Part shown: positions 4,566 to 15,656 of the stretch, piece by piece
Numbering within the stretch: the stretch's first letter is position 1
How the letters are laid out: each line of letters opens with the position of its first letter
Assembly: GCA_045642485.1 (NCBI GenBank)
Contig: JAZUIV010000002.1
Coordinates: 5,107-69,106 of the forward strand
Reading direction: 5' to 3'
Source: Bacteroidales bacterium
Lineage (GTDB): Bacteria; Bacteroidota; Bacteroidia; Bacteroidales; UBA932
DNA: 64,000 nucleotides
Notes under the pieces: model-generated
Databases searched by the model: none
What the model was told of the DNA's origin: nothing
What the model saw: only the letters and a program-made list of their open reading frames with translations
Program-made: the position numbers and the translations under genes

Positions 4566-7500
4566 CTACAATTTTTGAACACTTATATTGAGAGAGGTAT
4601 CCTCCCAATCCACTTTCACGGAGTTCTCCACAACCTCCGACAAAGACAAGTCTTCCGCAAGTGTCTGCCTGCATACATAATCCTTGAACAGAGTCAGTGA
4701 ATCTTCGATATCCGGGCGTTTCTCAATCACAATCCTTATACGGTCAGTCACCTCAAATCCGCTATCCTTACGTATGTTCTGGATTCTGTTGACCAGTTCC
4801 CGGGCCACACCTTCGCGGCGGAGGGCATCGGTGACCGTCACGTCCAATGCGACGGTAAGACTGCCTTCACTTGCCACAAGCCAGCCGGGCATATCTTCCG
4901 AAGTAATCTGATAGTCTTCCGCAGTCAGTTCAACAGCGCCTCCGGGCAGAGTCAGAGAATATTCCCCTTCCCTCTCGATGGCAGAGATTGTGTTCTGGTC
5001 CAGCTGGCCGAACGCGGCTGCAATCTCCTTCATCCTGGCACCGTAGCGTTTGCCCAGAGTCTTGAAATTGGGTTTGATTTTCTTTGTAATCAGGCCGGCA
5101 GTCTCGTGGATAAATTCAGCCTCCTTCACGTTCACCTCATTGAGGATAAGCTGTTTCACAGCCTCCAGACGGGATTCCACCTCGGCATCCAGCACGGGGA
5201 TAAGAATCTTTGCAAGAGGCTGACGGACCTTAATATTGACCTTCCTGCGGAGAGCCAGAATCATCGAAGTCCCCCGTTGGGCGAGGGCCATTCTCTTCTC
5301 AAGTTCGGAATCCACGCAGACGCTATCGGCTTCGGGCATCAGATGGAGGTGCACGCAACCTGCCTCAGGGTCAAGGTCACGGAAGAGACGGTCCATATAG
5401 AATGGTGCTATCGGAGCAGCAAGCAGAGCCACGGTCTTCAATGCACCGTACAGGGTCTGGTAGGCTGAAAGCTTGGAAGCCGACATTCCACCTCCCCAGA
5501 AACGCTTGCGGTTGAGCCTTACATACCAGTTGCTCAAGTCGTCGCATACAAAATCCTGTATAAGTCGTCCGGCAGTCGTGATATCGAAGTCCTCATAACA
5601 GGTCCTCACCTTCCCTATCAGAGTATTCTGCAAGGAGATCAGCCAGCGGTCGATTTCAGTCCTTTCAGAAATCGGCACCCTGGCCGCGGCGGGGTCGAAG
5701 CCGTCCACGTTCGCATAGAGAGCGAAGAATGAATATGTATTGTAGAGCGTCCCGAAGAATTTGCGTCTGATTTCATCCACACCGGCTTCGTCGAACTTGA
5801 GGTTGTCCCAGGGCTGCGCATTGGTCAGCATATACCAGCGCAGGGCATCCGCACCGTAATTGTCGAGAGCCTCGAACGGATTGACTGCGTTTCCGAGCCT
5901 CTTGCTCATCTTGTTGCCGTTCTTATCCAATACAAGCCCGTTGGAAATCACGTTCCTGAAAGCGCACTTGCCGCTTACCATAGTATTGATGGCGTGCAGG
6001 GTGAAGAACCATCCCCTTGTCTGGTCGACACCTTCCGCTATGAAATCGGCAGTCTGTCCGAACTCGGAATGTCCCAGTTTTGCCAGTCCTTCCTGAGCAT
6101 AGGGCATCGAGCCGGAATCGAACCACACGTCAATGAGGTCCTTTTCACGGAACATCTTCCGTCCGTCATCGCTGACAAGATATATCTCATCCACATAGGG
6201 GCGGTGCAGGTCAATCTTCTCATAGTTCTCACGGGAGAAATCCCCGACTACGAAACCATTGTCAGACAAAGGATTGGTTGTCATATATCCGGCGGACACA
6301 GCTTTGTCTATCTCGTTGTAGAGTTCCTCCACGCTGCCGATGCACTTCTCGGCCGTGCCGTCTTCAGTACGCCAGATGGGAAGAGGAGTCCCCCAATAGC
6401 GGCTGCGGCTCAGATTCCAGTCCTGCAGATTTTCAAGCCATTTGCCGAACCTGCCGGAACCGGTGCTGGCCGGCTTCCAGTTTATTGTGTCGTTGAGTTC
6501 CATCATCTTCTCCCTGACAGCGGTGGAACGGATGAACCAGCTGTCGAGCGGATAGTAGAGCACCGGCTTGTCGGTGCGCCAGCAATGAGGATAAGAGTGA
6601 GTATGTTTTGCAATGTTGAACGCCTTCCCCTGCCCTTTCAGCTCTACGCAGATATCGATGTCAAGAGTGGGAGCGTCTGCCGGCAGAGAGGAATCATATG
6701 CATTCTTCACATATCGTCCGGCATAAGGTCCGTACAGTTCTCTGTTGACGCGGGCCGCAACGAAATCGGGATCCAGGTCTTCGATGCGGAACATACGTCC
6801 GGTTCTGTCCACCATCGGCTGATTATCTCCGGCGGCATCGACCACAAAGAAAGGCGGAATATTGTTCTGACGTGCCACCTTGTCGTCATCGGCACCGAAA
6901 GTGGGGGCGATGTGGACGATACCGGTACCGTCTTCGGTAGTCACGTAATCTCCGGTTATGACGCGGAAAGCCCCCTCTTCAGCCTTCATCCAGGGGATAA
7001 GCTGCTCGTAGCGCACTCCTGCAAGAGCCTTTCCGGGAATCGGTTCCCCTATCGTACTGAAAGGATTCTTATCGTTGAAATGCGCGCCCAGCAGAGATTT
7101 TGCAACGATGTATGTTGCAGGGGCCTTGGTATAGGGGTTTACGCTCTCCACGCGTATATATTCTATGTTGGGGCCGACACAGAGCGCTGTGTTGGAAGGA
7201 AGCGTCCAGGGAGTCGTGGTCCAGGCAAGAATGAACACGTCATTCCGGGTCCCTTCAAAAAGGAATTCGCTTGCGGCGTCCCTGACGACCTTGAACTGCA
7301 CGACCGCAGTGGTATCCTTCACGTCACGGTAGCAACCGGGCTGGTTCAGCTCGTGGGAACTCAATCCTGTACCGGCGGCAGGAGAATAGGGCTGGATGGT
7401 GTATCCCTTATAGAGATAACCTTTCCCGTAGATATCCTTGAGCAAATACCACAGGGTCTCTATATATCTGTTGTCGTAGGTGATATAGGCATTGTCCATA

Positions 7501-7928
7501 TCCACCCAATAGCCAATGCGTTCGGTAAGGTTACGCCACTGCTCGGTATATTTCATCACCTCGCGTCTGCAGGCATCGTTGTATTCCTTGACGGAAATCT
7601 TTTTCCCTATGTCTTCCTTGGTGATTCCCAGCATCTTCTCCACGCCCAACTCAACGGGAAGGCCGTGCGTGTCCCATCCGGCCCTGCGTTCCACGCGATA
7701 TCCGGTCTGGGTCTTGTAACGGCAGACTGCATCCTTTATGCTACGCGCCATCACGTGATGGATTCCAGGCATGCCGTTGGCGGAAGGCGGACCTTCGTGA
7801 AAGATAAAACGGGCAGCGCCTTCCCTGAGTTTCAGGGATTGTCCGAAATCATCCTCCCGCCGCCACATTTCAAGCACCTCGCGGTTGATTTCCACAAGAT
7901 CAAGATTTTTATATTCCTTGAATTTCAT
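4566..7928 (-). CDS. ileS: isoleucine--tRNA ligase
   Basis: About 1120 aa. It has the class I HIGH-type motif (PPSANGMPGIHHV) and the KMSKR motif (NKMSKRLGN). The start MKFKEYKNLD is at 7928. Confidence 0.97.
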   Translation of the reverse strand: MKFKEYKNLDLVEINREVLEMWRREDDFGQSLKLREGAARFIFHEGPPSANGMPGIHHVMARSIKDAVCRYKTQTGYRVERRAGWDTHGLPVELGVEKMLGITKEDIGKKISVKEYNDACRREVMKYTEQWRNLTERIGYWVDMDNAYITYDNRYIETLWYLLKDIYGKGYLYKGYTIQPYSPAAGTGLSSHELNQPGCYRDVKDTTAVVQFKVVRDAASEFLFEGTRNDVFILAWTTTPWTLPSNTALCVGPNIEYIRVESVNPYTKAPATYIVAKSLLGAHFNDKNPFSTIGEPIPGKALAGVRYEQLIPWMKAEEGAFRVITGDYVTTEDGTGIVHIAPTFGADDDKVARQNNIPPFFVVDAAGDNQPMVDRTGRMFRIEDLDPDFVAARVNRELYGPYAGRYVKNAYDSSLPADAPTLDIDICVELKGQGKAFNIAKHTHSYPHCWRTDKPVLYYPLDSWFIRSTAVREKMMELNDTINWKPASTGSGRFGKWLENLQDWNLSRSRYWGTPLPIWRTEDGTAEKCIGSVEELYNEIDKAVSAGYMTTNPLSDNGFVVGDFSRENYEKIDLHRPYVDEIYLVSDDGRKMFREKDLIDVWFDSGSMPYAQEGLAKLGHSEFGQTADFIAEGVDQTRGWFFTLHAINTMVSGKCAFRNVISNGLVLDKNGNKMSKRLGNAVNPFEALDNYGADALRWYMLTNAQPWDNLKFDEAGVDEIRRKFFGTLYNTYSFFALYANVDGFDPAAARVPISERTEIDRWLISLQNTLIGKVRTCYEDFDITTAGRLIQDFVCDDLSNWYVRLNRKRFWGGGMSASKLSAYQTLYGALKTVALLAAPIAPFYMDRLFRDLDPEAGCVHLHLMPEADSVCVDSELEKRMALAQRGTSMILALRRKVNIKVRQPLAKILIPVLDAEVESRLEAVKQLILNEVNVKEAEFIHETAGLITKKIKPNFKTLGKRYGARMKEIAAAFGQLDQNTISAIEREGEYSLTLPGGAVELTAEDYQITSEDMPGWLVASEGSLTVALDVTVTDALRREGVARELVNRIQNIRKDSGFEVTDRIRIVIEKRPDIEDSLTLFKDYVCRQTLAEDLSLSEVVENSVKVDWEDTSLNISVQKL

Positions 7929-7951
7929 AAACAACGTTTCGTATTAATCCA

Positions 7952-7959
7952 CAAATATA
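7952..7959 (-). promoter_or_regulatory. candidate Bacteroidota -7 promoter box (TATATTTG) for ileS
   Basis: The plus strand reads CAAATATA, which is TATATTTG on the minus strand. This matches the TAnnTTTG consensus, 24 nt upstream of the ileS ATG. Confidence 0.35.
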
Positions 7960-7999
7960 CAAAAAATGACTACCTTTACTGAAATTTATGACGATATAA

Positions 8000-8485
8000 A
8001 TGAGCACCATCGACATAATCATCGCGGTATGTTTTCTACCCTGCCTCTTCTTCGGTCTGAAGCACGGTTTGGTAAAACAGATTACAAGCCTGTGTACCAT
8101 CTATTTCGGAGTGACGCTTTCCCTGCGGTTCTCCTCTCCGGTGATGGAGTGGCTTTCCAGTCACGTGGAAATGTCTCCGCTGGCCGCGAAAATGGTGTCG
8201 TTGATCATCATCTTTTTTGTAATCGCACTTCTGCTGAGCCTTCTGGGACGTCTGGTCGAAAAAGTTTTACAGATAACTCTGCTAGGCTGGGTCAACAAAG
8301 TACTCGGTGTCGCTATGGCGTTCGTCATTTTCACCGTTACCCTCTCCGCTGTCACATTCATTGTGGATCAGGCCAACAACGCCCTGTCTTTCATACCGAA
8401 AGAGCAAATTTCAGAATCCCGGATCTACCCCGAACTCCTTAAACTTTCGAAGTTGATTTTTCCATATTTCAAACAGCTCTTCTAA
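8000..8485 (+). CDS. cvpA: CvpA family membrane protein
   Basis: 161 aa with about 4 TM helices. The N-terminus IDIIIAVCFL..GLKHGLVKQ is typical of CvpA. Confidence 0.75.
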   Translation: MSTIDIIIAVCFLPCLFFGLKHGLVKQITSLCTIYFGVTLSLRFSSPVMEWLSSHVEMSPLAAKMVSLIIIFFVIALLLSLLGRLVEKVLQITLLGWVNKVLGVAMAFVIFTVTLSAVTFIVDQANNALSFIPKEQISESRIYPELLKLSKLIFPYFKQLF

Positions 8486-8817
8486 AGTTTTTCCACATTC
8501 GTGTAAATCCGTCACCGACGCATAAAATTCATACGTTTGGAGCATATCCCTTTACCGGGGTATGCTGAACTTTGCGCTATGAAAAACGACGGAAAAATTT
8601 TACCCCTGACCGAGTTGGATGGACTTGCGGAAGATATGTTGCCTAACGCCCCCGGGGCTCTCAATTTCTTCTTCTGCTTGCTAATAACCGCAACGCTTCT
8701 GCTCTCCATCCTTCCGGTCTTTTTTTTTAACTGATGATGCGGGGGCGATTGAGGGGACGGATGTCTTTTTGAGGGGGAAGACGAGGGGAAGACGCCCCCT
8801 TTTGTTGAAATGAATTT

Positions 8818-10893
8818 ATGAAAACCGATATCAAACAACACGACGAATCGGATTGCGGCGCTGCCTGCATCGCTTCAGTGGCAAGGCATTACGGGAAGAA
8901 CATCCCCATTGCTCTCATACGTGAAGAGTCCGGAACATCGCGGAGCGGCACCACAATAAAGGGTATCATTGATGCGTGCCACGCGACCGGATTCATCAGC
9001 GGGGCATACAAGGCCCCGGAAAAGGAGATTGAGCGGCTGAGGAAAGTGCCCTGTCCGGTAATCCTCCACACAGTGAACAGAAGAGGCGATCTGCACTTCG
9101 TCGTGTTGTATAGTATCGGCAAGAAGAAGGCTATCGTAATGGACCCTGCGCAAGGGACAAGAATCAAAATGGACCTGAGCCGGCTGCAGAAGGAGTGGAC
9201 AGGTTATCTGATTACAATGGCTCCGGACCCGGAAGCCGGGCGCGACTGGGCAGGCAGCGGCGGAAAGACGAACGTGATGCGATTCTTCCGCCTGATAGAC
9301 GTGAAGGAGTACGCACTGATGCTTGCCGGGTCGCTCGCATACATCACAGCAGGCATAAGCATCGCTCTCTTTCTCCAGCTTATAATCGACAAAGTACTGC
9401 CCTCCGGAGACATAGCCGAACTTATGAAAGCAGGCGGATTTATGCTTGCCATAATGGTTTGCACGCTGCTTCTCGGTTACGGGAGGGCACTCTACTCCAT
9501 CAGGCTCAATCTTCACCTTGACAGCCGGCTGGTAATGGGATACCTCTCCCATCTGTTTCGTCTGCCGGTAAGTTTCTTCACAAAAAGAGGAGCCGGAGAA
9601 CTCAACTCCAGAATCGGAGACATATCCAAAATACGAAGTTTTCTCACGGAAGGCATCTCCGGAATTGCGACCAACCTGCTCATTCTGGCCGTATCCTTCC
9701 TGCTGATGTTCACCTACCACTGGCGGCTTGCAGCGATGATGCTGATGTTCATTCCTGTATATCTGATATTATATGCAGTTGCCAACAGAGTGAACAGAAG
9801 GCTGAACCGCGAAATCATAGAGAGTTCCGCGGAATTTGAGGAAAAGACAGTCGAAAGCATAACGGGAGTGAAGGTGCTGAAATATTTCGGTAGCGAGCAG
9901 ACCTACTTCAGGGCCATCCGCAGACAGTATATGGAACTTGTCGGGAAACTGTACAGCGGAGGAAAATATGTGGGAGCCTTCTCAAGCTGGGCTGACGCAA
10001 TCTCCAAACTGATGACCGTCACCCTGCTGACCGCCGGATCCAATTTCATCTTCGCCGGAGAACTCACCGTGGGAGAACTCGTATCATTCTATTCTCTTTC
10101 GGTTTATTTCTCAATGCCGCTCAGCCAATTGGCGGGCATCAGCGAAAGTATGACCGAGGCGAATATCTCCGCCGAGAGAATCGGTGAAATCGAAGACCTT
10201 GACAGCGAAGGTACGGACACTCTGGAATTCACCCCGAACAGAAATGCGGACATTGTACTTGACAACATAGACTTCTCCTATCCGGGCTGCCCCATCCTGC
10301 TGGAAGGCTTCTCGATGAAAATACGGGCAGGCAGGATAACGGCGCTCCAGGGAGAGAGCGGGTGCGGGAAAAGTTCGATAGCAGGGCTTCTGATGAGGGA
10401 TTTCCCTGTCCGCAAAGGGCGAATCTTCATAGGTGATATGCCCATTGACCTGATAGACCTCGGCATCTGGAGAAAGTTCGTTTCGATTGTACCGCAGGAC
10501 GCTCCGCTTATGAATGGGACGATTCTTGAAAACATAACCTGCCTGGACAGTGAGCCAGACCTTGCAAAAGTGTCGCGGATAATCGATGAACTGGGGCTGA
10601 CAGGATTCATTCGTGAACTGCCCTTGGGTCCTCTTACCAAGGTCGGAGCGAGAGGTTCAGTACTCTCCGGAGGGCAGAAGCAACGCATAGCCCTGGCCAG
10701 AGTGTTGTACCTGGACCCTCAGGTCATAATTCTGGACGAGGCGACATCCTCGCTCGACGAGGCTTCCGAAAAAATCATTCTTGATAAACTCAATGATCTT
10801 AGGGACAAGGGGAAAACCATACTGATGATAACCCACAAAAACGACAACGCCCGGATAGCGGATTACAGGATTGAAATGAATGCGCATTCATAA
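8818..10893 (+). CDS. peptidase C39 domain-containing ABC transporter (bacteriocin/peptide-cleaving exporter)
   Basis: 691 aa. The N-terminal C39 signature is QHDESDCGAACIASV (catalytic Cys13), followed by GDLHFVVL (His) and DPAQG. Six TM segments follow. ABC motifs are Walker A GESGCGKSS, signature LSGGQKQR and Walker B IILDEATSSLD. Confidence 0.92.
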   Translation: MKTDIKQHDESDCGAACIASVARHYGKNIPIALIREESGTSRSGTTIKGIIDACHATGFISGAYKAPEKEIERLRKVPCPVILHTVNRRGDLHFVVLYSIGKKKAIVMDPAQGTRIKMDLSRLQKEWTGYLITMAPDPEAGRDWAGSGGKTNVMRFFRLIDVKEYALMLAGSLAYITAGISIALFLQLIIDKVLPSGDIAELMKAGGFMLAIMVCTLLLGYGRALYSIRLNLHLDSRLVMGYLSHLFRLPVSFFTKRGAGELNSRIGDISKIRSFLTEGISGIATNLLILAVSFLLMFTYHWRLAAMMLMFIPVYLILYAVANRVNRRLNREIIESSAEFEEKTVESITGVKVLKYFGSEQTYFRAIRRQYMELVGKLYSGGKYVGAFSSWADAISKLMTVTLLTAGSNFIFAGELTVGELVSFYSLSVYFSMPLSQLAGISESMTEANISAERIGEIEDLDSEGTDTLEFTPNRNADIVLDNIDFSYPGCPILLEGFSMKIRAGRITALQGESGCGKSSIAGLLMRDFPVRKGRIFIGDMPIDLIDLGIWRKFVSIVPQDAPLMNGTILENITCLDSEPDLAKVSRIIDELGLTGFIRELPLGPLTKVGARGSVLSGGQKQRIALARVLYLDPQVIILDEATSSLDEASEKIILDKLNDLRDKGKTILMITHKNDNARIADYRIEMNAHS

Positions 10894-10944
10894 CGGCGAA
10901 TCCCCTCCGCCGTCGTGTGAGGGGAAACGGAAAAAACAAAGAAA

Positions 10945-11145
10945 ATGGAAGAAAAACTAATGAAAGGATTGGGGTTTGGAGAGCTGGATTCTTCCGAACT
11001 CCGTATTCTGGGAGGGGCATCAACCCCCCTGTGGCAAAAAATCGTCGACAAGGTGAGGAATATGATTGACTTCATCAGCGATTACATTCCCAAACTCATT
11101 CAGGGATTCAGGGACGGATTCTCAGCCAGACCTCTCATAAATTAG
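10945..11145 (+). CDS. double-glycine-leader peptide A (bacteriocin-like precursor; predicted 42-aa mature peptide)
   Basis: 66-aa ORF, 51 nt after the ABC stop. The leader is MEEKLMKGLGFGELDSSELRILGG, with an alternative start M6 at 10960. The predicted mature peptide is ASTPLWQKIVDKVRNMIDFISDYIPKLIQGFRDGFSARPLIN, starting at 11017. It is Cys-free and has a GxxxG motif (GFRDG). Confidence 0.7.
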   Translation: MEEKLMKGLGFGELDSSELRILGGASTPLWQKIVDKVRNMIDFISDYIPKLIQGFRDGFSARPLIN

Positions 11146-11157
11146 GAGGGAACTGAC

Positions 11158-11319
11158 ATGACGAAAGAGATGTTAGCAGGTTTCGCTCCTGTCGATATGC
11201 AGGAAGCGGCATTTGTTCTTGGCGGACTTGACAAGAGGGCTCAGGATGCTCTTTACACAATCGGTTATGTAATCGGGGTGGTCGTCCGTCTGTTTGCGAG
11301 AATCATTTCCTGGTTCTAA
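11158..11319 (+). CDS. double-glycine-leader peptide B (bacteriocin-like precursor; predicted 30-aa mature peptide)
   Basis: Hand translation gives MTKEMLAGFAPVDMQEAAFVLGG|LDKRAQDALYTIGYVIGVVVRLFARIISWF*, 53 aa, below the track cutoff. An AGGAGGG sequence lies 7 nt upstream of the ATG. The leader has E(-8), V(-4) and GG(-2,-1). The mature part is hydrophobic with a GxxxG motif (GYVIG). Confidence 0.6.
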   Translation: MTKEMLAGFAPVDMQEAAFVLGGLDKRAQDALYTIGYVIGVVVRLFARIISWF

Positions 11320-11332
11320 TACGCCTAACGAG

Positions 11333-12649
11333 ATGAAACTACGGCTTATTCTCATTATGGCAGGTTTGCTGGCAGTGTTCAGCGCGAGGGCAAAGAACCC
11401 CGTCACCCTGCGTGAGTGCATAGACTATGCAATGGAGCATAATCTCACTATCAGAGAGAACAATCTCACCGTTGAAGAGAAAAAGACGGACCACACAAGA
11501 AAACTGATGTCACTTTTTCCCACAATATCCCTTTATGGCAGCGGGAACCTCAACTGGGGACGCAGCGTGGATATGCAGGAACTGGTCATAATCAAGAATA
11601 AGCTTACCGAATCCGCGAGTCTGTCATTGGGAGCGGAGTGGACTGTATTCGACGGGCTTTCCGGTTTCTTTTCCAAGAAGGCGGCCCGATATGAAATAGA
11701 CGCCGCTCTGCTTGACAATGACAGGCTTAAGAATGAGATTTCCCTGAACATTACGGAAGCATATCTGCAATTGATTCTTTCCGAGGAACTTTCAAAAGTT
11801 GCGTATTACAACTACCGGAAGATGCTTTCCGAACGGGAGAGAATCGCATCCCTGGTGGAAGAGGGGCAGCAGCCCAGGAGCGCACTCTACAACATCGAGG
11901 CCCAATGCGCAGGGGAACTGGCCCGGCTCACCGGATGCAGATGCGACAACAAAAGAAATATAATGAAACTGGCTCAACTTCTCAACCTGCCGTATGACGG
12001 CAGTTTCAAGGCGGAATATCCGCTTGATGGAGAAGAAACGCCGCCACCTCCATCCAGCACAATCGAGGAGATAGAGTTGTATGCTGAACGGATGCCGGAC
12101 ATCCTCTCGATGAAGAGCATTGTGGAAAGCAAACGGAATCTTTTCTCCGCAGCAAAAGGGTCGGCAGCCCCGACAATCACACTATCCGGAGCCTATTCCT
12201 CATACTACAGCAGTACGGCGGAAGGAAAATTCGGGGCGCAGCTGCGCGGCAACGTAAACCCTTCCGTGGGAGTTTCAATCGAAGTCCCGCTGTTCGACGG
12301 CTATTACAGTGCTGCGGCCATAAAGAACGGACGGATGGAATACGAACGGGCCAGACTTCAGGTGGAGGAACGGCGGCAGGATATGGTGGCAACCATCCAG
12401 TCGGCATTCATAGAGGCGGATAATCTTTACCAGATGATGCTTTCTGCGAAAAAAAAGATGGACGCCGCCGAAAAACTGCTGGACGCGTCGCTGGTCAAAT
12501 TCGACCTGGGAGGCATAACGGCAGTGGAGTACACAGTCACCCGCACCGATTTCCTGACAGCCCAGAGTGAATACATCCGAAGCAAATGGCAATATGTCTT
12601 CCAACTCAAAATCATAGACTACTACAAAGGAAACCCGATTGAATTATAG
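11333..12649 (+). CDS. TolC family outer-membrane efflux protein
   Basis: Start at the ATG at 11333 (MKLRLILIMAGLLAVFSARA signal peptide). The rest has TolC-like repeats (LTLRECIDYAMEHNLTI, LNITEAYLQL). The track's 11294 start would overlap peptide B. Confidence 0.85.
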   Translation: MKLRLILIMAGLLAVFSARAKNPVTLRECIDYAMEHNLTIRENNLTVEEKKTDHTRKLMSLFPTISLYGSGNLNWGRSVDMQELVIIKNKLTESASLSLGAEWTVFDGLSGFFSKKAARYEIDAALLDNDRLKNEISLNITEAYLQLILSEELSKVAYYNYRKMLSERERIASLVEEGQQPRSALYNIEAQCAGELARLTGCRCDNKRNIMKLAQLLNLPYDGSFKAEYPLDGEETPPPPSSTIEEIELYAERMPDILSMKSIVESKRNLFSAAKGSAAPTITLSGAYSSYYSSTAEGKFGAQLRGNVNPSVGVSIEVPLFDGYYSAAAIKNGRMEYERARLQVEERRQDMVATIQSAFIEADNLYQMMLSAKKKMDAAEKLLDASLVKFDLGGITAVEYTVTRTDFLTAQSEYIRSKWQYVFQLKIIDYYKGNPIEL

Positions 12650-13828
12650 ATGATACGAAGATTTTTCAAGGACGGACAGGGCAAAAGGGCCCGGAAAGTT
12701 GCAGCGGTGGCTGGTGGCCTCATCATTTTCATAATGATAATTGCAAAAGCCTGCTCCGGAGACAGGATTTCGGTTCAGACAATGACCGTGTTTCCCTCAA
12801 GGCTTGAAGAGGCCATCCCTTCAAGCGGCAAGATTCATCCCGTGAAAGAGGTAAAACTTTCACCCGATGTTTCCGGAGAGATAGTGGAGGTCCGGTGCGG
12901 GGAGGGCGACTATGTCCGGAAGGGGGACACTCTGATACTCATTCGCCGGGACACCTACATCTCGCGCGTGGAGAGAGCCCGGGCTTCGCTCTCAGCACTG
13001 AAAGCCCAGCACTGCAGGAACAAGGCAGAGCTCTCGAAGGCAGAACTCGAATACAGCAGGAACACCCGCCTGTTCGAAGGAGGGGCGATATCCAAGGCCG
13101 TGTACGAAAATTCCAAAGCCGGCTACGAGATAGCGGAGCAGACGGTACTGGCCTCCAAATATACCATTCTCAGCGGAGAGGCGGAGTTGAAAGAGGCTCT
13201 GGAAAGCCTTGCGAAAACCACTATCTGCGCTCCTACGGACGGCATCATATCCAGACTGACGGTAGAGCCGGGGGAGAGAGTTGTCGGGACAAGCCAGATG
13301 GCGGGTACCGAGATGCTTCGGATAGCGGACCCCGACCGGATGGAACTCGTTGTGGACGTGGGAGAAAACGATGTTGTCAGAATATGCGAGGGGGATAGTG
13401 TCTCCATCGAAATCGATGCCCATCCACGCCACATTTTCACAGGAAAGGTCACCCAAATCGCAAATTCCGCAAAAAATCTGGACGTTTCTTTCGAAAAGCT
13501 CACTAACTTTGAAGTCCGGATGGAGATTGTTCCCGATGGGGCAAAACTTCTTCCGGGGATGTCGGCTTCGGCGTCAATAGTCACACAGTCAAAACAGGAA
13601 TGCCTGGCCATTCCTCTGGGATGCGTCTTTACGGAGGGCAGGCAGGAGTTTGTCTGGGTGTTGCGTGACGACAGGTCTGTCGAAAAGAGGGCCATATCGA
13701 CCGGCATCCAGAACCTTAAGGAAATTGAAGTGACCGATGGGCTGGAGGAAGGAGAGGAAATTGTCACCGCCCCTCTCTCGGCCATCAACAAGGACCTGAC
13801 CGACGGACAAAAAGTAAATAGAGACTGA
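12650..13828 (+). CDS. HlyD/efflux periplasmic adaptor (membrane fusion protein)
   Basis: 392 aa. It has an N-terminal TM anchor, a biotinyl/lipoyl-like hairpin (VRKGDTLILI ... ICAPTDGIISRL), a coiled coil and a beta-barrel. Its ATG abuts the TolC TAG. Confidence 0.85.
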   Translation: MIRRFFKDGQGKRARKVAAVAGGLIIFIMIIAKACSGDRISVQTMTVFPSRLEEAIPSSGKIHPVKEVKLSPDVSGEIVEVRCGEGDYVRKGDTLILIRRDTYISRVERARASLSALKAQHCRNKAELSKAELEYSRNTRLFEGGAISKAVYENSKAGYEIAEQTVLASKYTILSGEAELKEALESLAKTTICAPTDGIISRLTVEPGERVVGTSQMAGTEMLRIADPDRMELVVDVGENDVVRICEGDSVSIEIDAHPRHIFTGKVTQIANSAKNLDVSFEKLTNFEVRMEIVPDGAKLLPGMSASASIVTQSKQECLAIPLGCVFTEGRQEFVWVLRDDRSVEKRAISTGIQNLKEIEVTDGLEEGEEIVTAPLSAINKDLTDGQKVNRD

Positions 13829-13829
13829 A

Positions 13830-14516
13830 ATGGCTACAATACTTCTTGTGGAAACGAGCACTGACTGCTGCAGCGCGGCAATCTGCCAAGACAACACCTT
13901 ACTTGCCGGAATGAAGGAAACGGCGCCCAAGGTACACGCATCAAAACTTGTACCTATGATCAACGATATTCTTGATGCCACATCACTGACGATGAAGCAG
14001 ATTGACGCAGTGGCCGTCAGCGGGGGGCCAGGTTCCTACACAGGTCTGCGAGTGGGTGTCTCCACCGCAAAAGGGCTCTGCTTCGGAGCGGGGAAGCCGT
14101 TAATCTCCGTTGGCACTCTGGATATCCTTGCTGCTCAGGGCGCGCAAGGCAGAGAGCATCCCGATTTCATCGTCCCATTCATTGATGCAAGGAGGATGGA
14201 AGTCTATTGCGCAGTCTATTCCGGCGATGGCAACCGCAAGTCGGATGTCGAAGCCGTCATCCTCGATGAAAGCAGTTTCCAGCCCCTTCTGGAGCAGGGC
14301 AAAGTTCTCTTCATCGGAACCGGTGTGGACAAATTCGCCGATATTCGCCATCATCCGAATGCCGTATTCGAGGAGAGTTTTCCCACTGCCCCGTATATGG
14401 CAGAACTCGCGGTGAAGGCATACGCACAAAAAAAGTTCGAAGACGTTGCGTACTTCGAACCTTTCTATCTCAAGGAGTTCAAGCCGGGAATCAGCAAGAA
14501 GTCCCCGCTGCTATAG
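13830..14516 (+). CDS. tsaB: tRNA threonylcarbamoyladenosine biosynthesis protein TsaB
   Basis: 228 aa. Motifs ILLVETSTDCCSAAI and GPGSYTGLRVGVSTAKGL are typical of TsaB/YeaZ. Confidence 0.88.
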   Translation: MATILLVETSTDCCSAAICQDNTLLAGMKETAPKVHASKLVPMINDILDATSLTMKQIDAVAVSGGPGSYTGLRVGVSTAKGLCFGAGKPLISVGTLDILAAQGAQGREHPDFIVPFIDARRMEVYCAVYSGDGNRKSDVEAVILDESSFQPLLEQGKVLFIGTGVDKFADIRHHPNAVFEESFPTAPYMAELAVKAYAQKKFEDVAYFEPFYLKEFKPGISKKSPLL

Positions 14517-15656
14517 ATTCTTGACTATCACCTGCTCCAGTTTCTCCGTATTGAAGATATCCCTTTCAACGATATCCCCGTCCTTGTTAATGACGAACAT
14601 AGTCGGAACCCTGGAGATGTTGTAGGCCAGGACAGAAGGTGAATCGATCCCCTGACCGTCGTTCACACTTATCCAGGGAAGATTCTGGCTCCTGATTGTC
14701 GCAGCCCAGGAAGGCTTGTCAATATCGAGGGAAACCTGATAGATTTCAAGCCCTTTTGCGTGATACTTCCCATAGATGCTCTCCAGTTCCTTGTTAAACA
14801 TCTTGTGTTCGTCCTGAGCCGTACTCCAGAATGAAAGGACTATCACCTTCCCCTTCAGTTCGGACAGAGACCTTGTCTTTCCGTCTATGTCGGGCATCGC
14901 TATGTCAGGAAAACTCACTGACTGAAGTTCCAGAAGTCTGTTGTTCAGACTGGCGACTGAGGCGCGTCTTGAAATCTCATCGTTCAGGGATGAGATGTAT
15001 TCGCTTCTGGGATAGACCACTGACAGAGAATCGCAAACCCTCCTGAAGATGACAACGTCGGAAGGTTCGTCAAAAACGGGAAGATTTTCGTTGAATTTCT
15101 GGAAAAGAGCAACGGCGGAAGTGATTGAGAAAGGATGCTCCATAATGAAGTGAGTAGCCTCCCTCCGGTAATCCACATAAGTCCGGCTGAGCTTCCTGTT
15201 GATCTCCTTCAAGGCGGCTTCATTTGACTGTTCCCTGGCGGAAATACCTTCCTTGGCAAGGGCTGAGATGGTGCCAGACGCCTTGCCGAACATATTGTTC
15301 AGTTCCAGGAAAAGAGCCGACTCTTCGGACCCTTCCACGCTGTAACCTCCGGTTGTGGAAGCTTTCAGAGAGACCTTGTCCCCATCCTTGAGGACGAGCG
15401 CGGCAATCTGCCTGTCTCCGGAGAATATGTAATAGAAATAAGGTTCGTTGCCGGTCAGGGCGACCTTGTATCTGAAGGCGCCGGATGCATCCGTCTTGAT
15501 GGTATCAACCACTGCAAACTTGTTGTAATTAAGTTTGCGCAATACAACGGAACTGTCCGCAGCACCGTCTATCACCGCCGAAATCACCGCCTGAGGCCCG
15601 TTGCTGCAGGAAGAAATCAGAACCGCCGCAAGGGCGAATATCATAAGTTTTTTCAT
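14511..15656 (-). CDS. TlpA/thioredoxin-fold lipoprotein (DUF4369-like N-domain) lacking the CxxC active site
   Basis: 381 aa. The lipobox is AAVLISSCS. The C-terminal thioredoxin-like fold reads VIVLSFWSTAQDEHK where WCGPC is expected. Confidence 0.75.
   Translation of the reverse strand: MKKLMIFALAAVLISSCSNGPQAVISAVIDGAADSSVVLRKLNYNKFAVVDTIKTDASGAFRYKVALTGNEPYFYYIFSGDRQIAALVLKDGDKVSLKASTTGGYSVEGSEESALFLELNNMFGKASGTISALAKEGISAREQSNEAALKEINRKLSRTYVDYRREATHFIMEHPFSITSAVALFQKFNENLPVFDEPSDVVIFRRVCDSLSVVYPRSEYISSLNDEISRRASVASLNNRLLELQSVSFPDIAMPDIDGKTRSLSELKGKVIVLSFWSTAQDEHKMFNKELESIYGKYHAKGLEIYQVSLDIDKPSWAATIRSQNLPWISVNDGQGIDSPSVLAYNISRVPTMFVINKDGDIVERDIFNTEKLEQVIVKNL

Follow-up and report, generated by a model that had tools for sequence, protein, structure and literature searches.

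What is the product of a 66-codon open reading frame (ORF) that follows an exporter gene in a Bacteroidales genome, and what is that product exported for? The ORF, which we call peptide A, lies on the + strand at 10945-11145 of a 64,000-nucleotide (nt) stretch of contig JAZUIV010000002.1 (assembly GCA_045642485.1; the whole stretch is referred to as the window), with an ATG at 10945 and a TAG stop at 11143-11145. It begins 51 nt behind the stop codon (10891-10893) of a gene for a peptidase-containing ABC transporter (PCAT), in agreement with a preliminary description of this DNA, which had read peptide A as the precursor of a small peptide with a double-glycine (GG) leader and an amphipathic core. 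That interpretation was supported by the analysis reported here. With somewhat better than even confidence, we favor the reading in which peptide A gives rise to one subunit of an unmodified two-peptide GG-leader pair, consisting of A and a second peptide, B, which is bacteriocin- or microcin-like and is made by a Gram-negative bacterium.

Comparative data showed that peptide A is a genuine gene on which purifying selection is strong. Six clusters with 80-89% identity to peptide A came from a word-indexed search; among homologues, identity was 80-92% in five related genomes and dropped to 32-53% in distant ones. An exhaustive profile search that covered 1.84 billion representatives gave 36 matches at E <= 0.001, and 30 of these were short peptides of 56-87 amino acids (aa) of the same design. 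The remaining six matches (P0025, P0040, and P0046 among them) were rejected as long surface-repeat proteins with 'GDGSITSTELTVVGGANA'-type repeats, whose likeness to the leader is due to chance. The peptide A family comprises ~30 clusters (50% identity) from gut and fermenter Bacteroidales metagenomes, and its members share the signature MEE..SSEL..GG ... DYIPxLxxGFxDGF. In an alignment of 32 diverse members, G23, G24, Y47, G54, and G58 were invariant, and E18 was at least 90% conserved. Among the five related genomes, variable sites were distributed over the three codon positions as 11:7:38, and the ratio of nonsynonymous to synonymous substitution (dN/dS) was 0.03-0.18 overall and 0.00-0.08 in the core, with higher values in the leader. 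The preliminary description had named disruption of the ORF in otherwise intact cassettes as a sign that would speak against peptide A; we found the ORF intact in 20 of 20 loci inspected. Three database clusters of the family (P0045, P0052, and P0060) appear truncated or frameshifted and are taken to be assembly errors or cases of rare decay.

These data also bear on the alternative that peptide A is a chance, untranslated frame in an intergenic or regulatory region. The window's exact peptide A was not returned from the protein collection, from which the window's peptide B was returned, and peptide A seems not to have been called as a gene in this genome, as this alternative would predict. 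However, homologues are called as genes in other assemblies (e.g., MBP9991992.1 and MDD2594646.1, both labelled 'hypothetical protein'), and the intact frames, the dN/dS values far below 1 with a dominance of third-position changes, and the invariant functional residues across the family all argue against a chance frame. Its probability appears negligible, and we judge it already refuted by the comparative data.

Two translation starts had been considered in the preliminary description, the ATG at 10945 and Met6 at 10960. In relatives of peptide A, M1-E2-E3 is near-universal, with M1 at least 90% conserved in the 32 diverse members, and the nucleotides ATGGAA are invariant at the start in 20 loci, whereas codon 6 specifies V, L, I, T, F, or K and is GTG in locus L012. 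Because M1-E2-E3 is conserved and Met6 is not, we regard the translation start as settled, by sequence conservation, at the first ATG, with a predicted leader of 24 aa; the alternative start at Met6 was not borne out. Every locus has an A/T-rich stretch of 16-25 nt ahead of the peptide A ATG, which is the usual initiation context in Bacteroidota, a phylum that mostly does without Shine-Dalgarno pairing.

The precursor is made up of the leader MEEKLMKGLGFGELDSSELRILGG (10945..11016, +), with predicted cleavage after Gly24, followed by the core ASTPLWQKIVDKVRNMIDFISDYIPKLIQGFRDGFSARPLIN (11017..11145, +, including the stop codon). The leader places E at -7 and L at -6, compared to -8 and -7 in the canonical LSxxELxxIxGG, so that it is one residue short between EL and the hydrophobic -4 position, just as had been noted from the sequence. 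Position -4 is as in the canonical leader, and the other hydrophobic residues (L or F), at -6, -11, and -14, are shifted by one residue. When the family was compared to the canonical pattern (acidic at -8; hydrophobic at -4, -7, -12, and -15), relatives P0034, P0053, and P0056 matched its spacing, and the extra leader residue is present in some peptide A relatives.

The 42-aa core contains no Cys, carries a net charge of +2, and ends in the motif DYIPxLxxGFxDGF, within which G54-F-R-D-G58 forms a GxxxG motif. Its predicted amphipathic character, proposed earlier together with the absence of Cys, held up when the Eisenberg hydrophobic moment was calculated: the maximum was 0.65 in an 18-residue window, a value that only 1.9% of shuffled sequences attained. 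The GxxxG motif near the C-terminus of the core, which had also been pointed out before, proved to be invariant in the 32 members. AlphaFold2 with the family alignment modeled peptide A as one helix over residues 27-60, with a mean predicted local distance difference test score (pLDDT) of 65.6 and block means of 74-81 over residues 31-60. Across the family, the hydrophobic moment is 0.50-0.75, and 29 of 32 members are Cys-free. Pfam and NCBIfam scans of peptides A and B returned no family at E <= 1, consistent with the earlier remark that no named bacteriocin was recognizable as a relative, and a profile search against Protein Data Bank (PDB) sequences gave nothing meaningful, the best match being a TetR regulator at E = 0.03.

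Directly behind peptide A lies the ORF of peptide B (53 aa; 11158..11319, +), which consists of a canonical 23-aa GG leader, with E at -8 and hydrophobic residues at -4, -7, -12, and -15, and a 30-aa hydrophobic core, LDKRAQDALYTIGYVIGVVVRLFARIISWF, with a GxxxG motif and a net charge of +2. Across loci, this core is of the type DK.AQ.ALY.IGY.IG. Invariant in peptide B are E(-8), GG, D(+2), and the second Gly of GxxxG, whose first Gly is at least 90% conserved, and the complete motif is found in 17 of 18 complete peptide B sequences. AlphaFold2 modeled a helix over residues 14-52 with pLDDT > 90 in the core, and the best 19-residue Kyte-Doolittle average of 1.3-2.1 is enough for a membrane helix. 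The net charge of peptide B ranges from -1 to +4 across the family. In all 19 loci with enough sequence, a B-type GG-leader ORF directly follows A at a distance of 10-18 nt (12 nt in the window), except in locus L016, where the two ORFs overlap. We conclude that peptide A is obligately paired with B and never occurs alone.

The stop codon of peptide A is fused to a Shine-Dalgarno-like GGAGG (TAGGAGG; 11143..11149, +), 8 nt before the start of peptide B. Of 19 loci, 14 have this GGAGG in the stretch that separates A from B, 12 of them as the exact TAGGAGG; its conservation ahead of B is unusual for Bacteroidota, in which Shine-Dalgarno pairing is generally unused.

The idea that A and B are paralogues was rejected, since the two are not homologous beyond the leader (hhalign probability 13.7%). 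This lack of homology would also fit a system without a heterodimer, in which A and B are independent one-peptide bacteriocins that share an exporter, or in which one is a toxin and the other an export or induction factor. Loci that encode several bacteriocins and one shared PCAT are common, and the interaction of A with B is a presumption. By contrast, independent toxins are usually gained and lost separately, whereas the A-then-B order and close spacing are strict in the 19 loci, and GxxxG is invariant or nearly so in both peptides. We consider independent action unlikely and retain the reading of A and B as two subunits of one system.

The genes around the pair point to its route of export. 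The PCAT gene (8818..10893, +) encodes a 691-aa protein in which Pfam and NCBIfam scans identified a C39 peptidase domain, a six-transmembrane exporter domain, and an ATPase domain (Pfam Peptidase_C39, 2.6e-33; ABC_membrane, 3.6e-43; ABC_tran, 2.7e-25). Its best NCBIfam match, TIGR01193 bacteriocin_ABC (2.2e-110), is below the curated cutoff. When the C39 domain was aligned to those of ComA (3K8U and 5XE8) and PCAT1 (4RY2), Gln7 and Cys13 (in QHDESDCG), the His (in DLHFVV), and the Asp (in VMDP) were found to be conserved; because the catalytic Cys, His, and Asp are conserved, this domain should be an active protease and not a degenerate C39-like domain. Downstream of peptide B are genes for a TolC-like outer-membrane channel (11336..12649, +; Pfam OEP, 1.3e-39; TIGR01844 type_I_sec_TolC, 3.9e-25, below cutoff) and a periplasmic adaptor, or membrane-fusion protein (12650..13828, +; TIGR01730 RND_mfp, 3e-59, above cutoff; Pfam HlyD_D23 and HlyD_3), which tsaB directly follows. 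All three parts of a Gram-negative type I route (PCAT, adaptor, and TolC-like channel) are therefore encoded in the peptide A operon, and the conserved module contains no modification enzymes. As judged from these genes and the leader, peptide A is very probably an exported PCAT substrate, and it falls within the operational definition of a class II microcin substrate.

In design, the pair resembles class IIb bacteriocins (lactococcin G, plantaricin EF/JK, and enterocin 1071), which likewise have two adjacent small GG-leader genes and a C39-ABC exporter in the locus, unmodified helical cores of ~30-40 aa, and a conserved GxxxG in each peptide. In the account of Nissen-Meyer 2011 that is cited in PMC5380434, GxxxG is characteristic of class IIb pairs that interact. 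Unlike the Gram-positive class IIb systems, A and B belong to a Gram-negative Bacteroidales producer, and their export requires an adaptor and a TolC-like channel; moreover, A and B are not consistently cationic, their locus is core and vertically inherited, and homology to class IIb peptides is not established.

The pair likewise resembles class II microcins of the MccV/colicin V type, which are GG-leader peptides of < 10 kDa from Gram-negative producers that leave by way of a PCAT (CvaB-like), a membrane-fusion protein (CvaA-like), and TolC. A further likeness to MccV is that cvpA, a gene historically tied to colicin V production, adjoins the A/B cassette. The class II microcins covered in PMC12219008 are single peptides, mostly from Enterobacteriaceae and often encoded on plasmids or islands, whereas A and B form an obligate pair; peptide A also differs in its 24-aa leader and shows no sequence similarity to any microcin model. 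The logic of the A/B system would thus combine, by analogy, the two-peptide action of class IIb bacteriocins with the export route of class II microcins.

Within the Bacteroidales, the comparison is with the bacteroidetocins, which are, to our knowledge, the only characterized GG-leader family among the few peptide toxins of this order. They share with peptide A a GG leader, a mature peptide of ~42 aa, dependence on a C39-ABC protein, and the absence of a classical immunity gene (class IIf; Coyne et al., 2019, PMC6671954). However, bacteroidetocins have leaders of 15-16 aa and at least two Cys residues that form disulfides, act as single peptides, and are encoded in loci with genes for a transmembrane protein and a thiol oxidoreductase, and adaptor and outer-membrane genes are undescribed in that account (PMC6671954); their target is reported in PMC8546649 as BamA. 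In contrast, peptide A has a 24-aa leader and no Cys, is paired with B, and is accompanied by adaptor and outer-membrane genes, and the conserved module contains no thiol oxidoreductase. Assignment of peptide A to the bacteroidetocins was rejected by leader length, Cys content, and locus content, a separation that is based on the description in PMC6671954 and not on sequence comparison.

The nearest Gram-negative precedent for two-peptide action is the Cdz system of Caulobacter crescentus (CdzC/CdzD; PMC5380434), which also combines two peptides, type I secretion, a small transmembrane protein, and glycine helix-packing motifs; in Cdz, this small protein sits in the inner membrane and provides immunity. 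The Cdz proteins are 84-86 aa long and have extended GxxxGxxxG glycine zippers, whereas A and B are short and have a single GxxxG each. Moreover, Cdz aggregates on the cell surface and kills by contact, and its loci are often horizontally acquired, in contrast to the vertical A/B cassette. Because large surveys have already turned up thousands of predicted GG precursors in Bacteroidota (PMC12648112; PMC12219008), the kind of precursor to which peptide A belongs is known; the two-peptide, cvpA-linked, and vertically inherited form is new.

We infer the following scheme, in which cleavage and export, the interaction of A with B, antibacterial activity, immunity, and the part played by the RNA described below are all proposals. 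In the producer, a Bacteroidales bacterium close to 'Candidatus Cacconaster', transcription of the operon would run from a small membrane ORF across the PCAT gene and the genes for A and B to those for the outer-membrane protein and the adaptor, and translation of peptide A would begin with the ATG at 10945. The leader of 24 aa would be bound by the C39 domain of the neighboring PCAT and removed by a cut after Gly24, and the ABC exporter, adaptor, and TolC-like channel would carry the 42-aa amphipathic A and the 30-aa hydrophobic B out of the cell. There, the helices of A and B would associate via GxxxG and target competing bacteria at the membrane or at a membrane protein. A small, C-terminally anchored membrane ORF would be the candidate immunity protein, and a hairpin and pseudoknot in the RNA would probably set peptide expression relative to that of the transporter. 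Whether A and B together are an antibacterial two-peptide toxin is, in our estimation, an even call.

The small membrane ORF (8579..8734, +) lies between cvpA and the PCAT gene and encodes 51 aa, hydrophilic at the N-terminus and with a transmembrane helix at the C-terminus. Five related genomes carry it intact at exactly this length, with dN/dS of 0.29-0.60, and the distant loci L012, L016, L018, and L020 have ORFs of similar build at the corresponding position; a Pfam scan gave no match. Immunity to class II microcins normally comes from a small inner-membrane protein encoded alongside (PMC12219008). By analogy, this ORF sits where immunity genes sit, which we count in favor of the bacteriocin reading, and as a guess it is a candidate immunity or accessory protein.

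The cassette occurs in Bacteroidales metagenome-assembled genomes (MAGs), the closest of which include 'Candidatus Cacconaster' of horse faeces, and it was also found in material from hare gut, in a fermenter, and in further metagenome assemblies. The order cvpA, PCAT, A, B was found in every locus with enough sequence, with the small membrane ORF in most, usually followed by the outer-membrane and adaptor genes, tsaB, and the housekeeping neighbors ileS, greA, and the gene for a HIT protein. In L016 and L017, of a hare-gut lineage, the outer-membrane and adaptor genes are replaced by a gene (positions 6813-9479 of each of these two loci) for an 888-aa protein without a Pfam domain, and in L020 a different gene lies upstream of cvpA; in these loci cvpA-PCAT-A-B is kept. 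A mobile-element origin was rejected: there was no tblastn match in plasmids, phage matches were at chance level (E 0.4-0.7), and cassette GC content is uniform. Because sequence identity falls with that of the neighbors, GC content is uniform, and there is no plasmid or phage homologue, we conclude that the cassette is an old, vertically inherited chromosomal module and not a mobile island. Neither this inheritance nor the pairing with peptide B had been seen in the preliminary description.

Several results weigh against a two-peptide bacteriocin. First, the module behaves as part of the core genome, which is unusual for bacteriocin loci, since these are typically accessory and variable. Its place in the chromosome, between cvpA and tsaB, is the same in genomes with IleS proteins only 68-76% identical to that of the window, and peptide A diverges at the pace of its neighbors; in L007, identity is 53% for A, 53% for PCAT, 48% for the adaptor, 53% for TsaB, 60% for CvpA, and 68% for IleS. 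Second, the net charge of peptide A spans -4 to +4 across the family, and in one subgroup both A and B are neutral or slightly acidic, which does not fit a simple cationic pore-former. Class II microcins are often neutral or anionic, and near-neutral charge is not decisive against toxicity. Third, the leader spacing of peptide A is non-canonical by one residue. Fourth, the antibacterial activity is one that we infer, and the module holds no proven immunity gene: that the small membrane ORF confers immunity is a guess, and L007 and L010 lack this ORF. The missing immunity gene is not decisive against toxicity either, since Bacteroidales peptide toxins, including those of bacteroidetocin producers, normally come without a recognizable immunity gene (PMC6671954). 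Fifth, all carriers are uncultured MAGs or metagenome contigs.

Finally, the resemblance to a known class IIb peptide is slight. Alignment of peptide A to lactococcin G-beta (2JPK sequence) by hhalign covered 10 columns around GxxxG with a probability of 19.5%, matching LIQGFRDGF of peptide A to FIKGFGKGA of the beta peptide, whose sequence was verified against PDB 2JPK. Six of the 32 members matched the lactococcin G-beta model NF038034 below threshold (E 0.006-0.24), which we count, weakly, in favor of the bacteriocin reading, and the window peptide gave no match; the two matches inspected scored 11.7 and 13.9 bits, compared to a curated cutoff of 37. As far as these alignments indicate, peptide A shares a motif-level resemblance with lactococcin G-beta and is not a member of its family. 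Single family members also gave weak matches to the ComC and BlpC pheromone models, and the BlpC match that was inspected lay in the leader region. None of the sub-threshold matches to ComC, BlpC, or lactococcin G-beta among the 32 members scanned was accepted as homology.

Much of this evidence is shared by an alternative in which A and B are exported but are not weapons, and form instead a secreted or surface pair for signaling or for an envelope or outer-membrane role, possibly linked to CvpA. A core-genome, vertically inherited module with strong purifying selection on the mature peptides, no recognized immunity gene, and net charges near neutral would all suit such a role, as would the weak ComC and BlpC matches and the presence of cvpA next to the cassette even where the outer neighbors change. 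CvpA function is described as still largely unknown in a preprint (bioRxiv 10.1101/2020.09.25.314492). However, no gene for a histidine kinase, response regulator, or other receptor lies in or beside the conserved module; mature peptides of 42 and 30 aa are of a size usual for class II bacteriocins and not for short pheromones; and the invariant GxxxG motifs and the membrane-competent helix of B are class II-like as well. We regard a non-weapon role as possible but rather improbable, and continue to favor the bacteriocin- or microcin-like pair.

The gene that such a role would invoke, cvpA (8000..8485, +; colicin V production protein family; Pfam Colicin_V, E = 5.6e-24), immediately precedes the cassette in all loci that extend far enough upstream, even with differing outer neighbors (L016 and L020). 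This adjacency suggests a functional link of CvpA to a colicin-V-type export module.

How might peptide output be adjusted to that of the exporter? The last codons of the PCAT gene and the spacer behind them, read as RNA, contain a predicted structure that is conserved and whose stems covary. Hairpin 1 (ATGAAT-GCGC-ATTCAT; 10876..10891, +) has a 3' arm that touches the PCAT stop codon, and a candidate H-type pseudoknot (10893..10925, +) comes next. In the pseudoknot, stem S1 pairs ACGGCG (10893-98) with CGCCGT (10908-13), and stem S2 pairs TCCCCTC (10901-07) with GAGGGGA (10919-25), with AA as loop L1 and CGTGT as loop L3; an A-rich tail of 19 nt leads from the pseudoknot to the peptide A ATG. 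In 19 loci, the GCGC loop of hairpin 1 is nearly invariant, and five of its six pairs are changed on both sides, with G-U wobbles seen. The topology of the pseudoknot is the same, with different stem sequences, in 20 of 20 loci (L007 needs a 3-nt L2), and its mean score was 11.4, compared to 2.8 in shuffled sequences. For hairpin 1 and S1 together, 84.5% of cells were paired, and 8 of 12 pairs were double-changed; none of 500 shuffles matched this, and slid controls gave 29-46%.

With a plain MAFFT alignment as input, RNAalifold recovered hairpin 1 and S1 but, owing to register shifts, missed S2, and realignment with a covariance model left a one-column shift for the window group. Because of the register shifts in both alignments, S2 was counted with a fitted register and a matched shuffle control: 6.63 of 7 pairs formed, compared to 4.59 in the control, and all seven positions covary. 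The covariance model found exactly one copy of the element per locus and none elsewhere in the window, and an Rfam scan of 8400-11400 (E <= 10) gave no match at the element. Hairpin 1, and probably part of the pseudoknot too, would have to be opened by any ribosome that reaches the PCAT stop codon. It is our guess that the element sets peptide output relative to that of the transporter through mRNA processing or stability, or through translation.

The RNA element and the cvpA linkage together also allow a reading in which cvpA, the small ORF, PCAT, A, and B form an ancient housekeeping system for peptide export, and an A/B heterodimer, tied to CvpA, serves the envelope or signaling of the producer itself, with its output under the control of an undescribed class of structured RNA that possibly responds to a ligand or a protein. 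We think this quite improbable.

Should the bacteriocin- or microcin-like reading hold and the pair prove active, it would be the first of the two-peptide, class IIb-like kind to be described from Bacteroidota, and communities of the herbivore gut could be edited with narrow tools derived from it. Large in-silico surveys yield thousands of predicted GG precursors but do not distinguish among them; the peptide A family is an unnamed group among them with a clear signature that always comes with a second GxxxG peptide. Through its fixed position beside cvpA, the family gives a point of entry to the part that CvpA plays in peptide export, which has long been unclear, and the covarying pseudoknot is a candidate new cis-regulatory RNA in a phylum that does not rely on Shine-Dalgarno pairing.

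Regulatory sites on the DNA were less distinct. A Bacteroidetes-type -7 motif (TAnnTTTG) occurs once upstream of the small ORF, as TACGTTTG at 8532-8539 (+), 47 nt ahead of that ORF; the exact motif is shared by the window and L001 only, and on this weak evidence we do not claim it as the operon promoter. A scan for sigma-70 promoters and intrinsic terminators found no more sites than in shuffled sequences and none between PCAT and A. Downstream of tsaB, a gene for a TlpA/AhpC-like thioredoxin-fold protein (14511-15656, -) is syntenic in most loci; because it lies on the opposite strand and peptides A and B are Cys-free, it is probably unrelated to the cassette.

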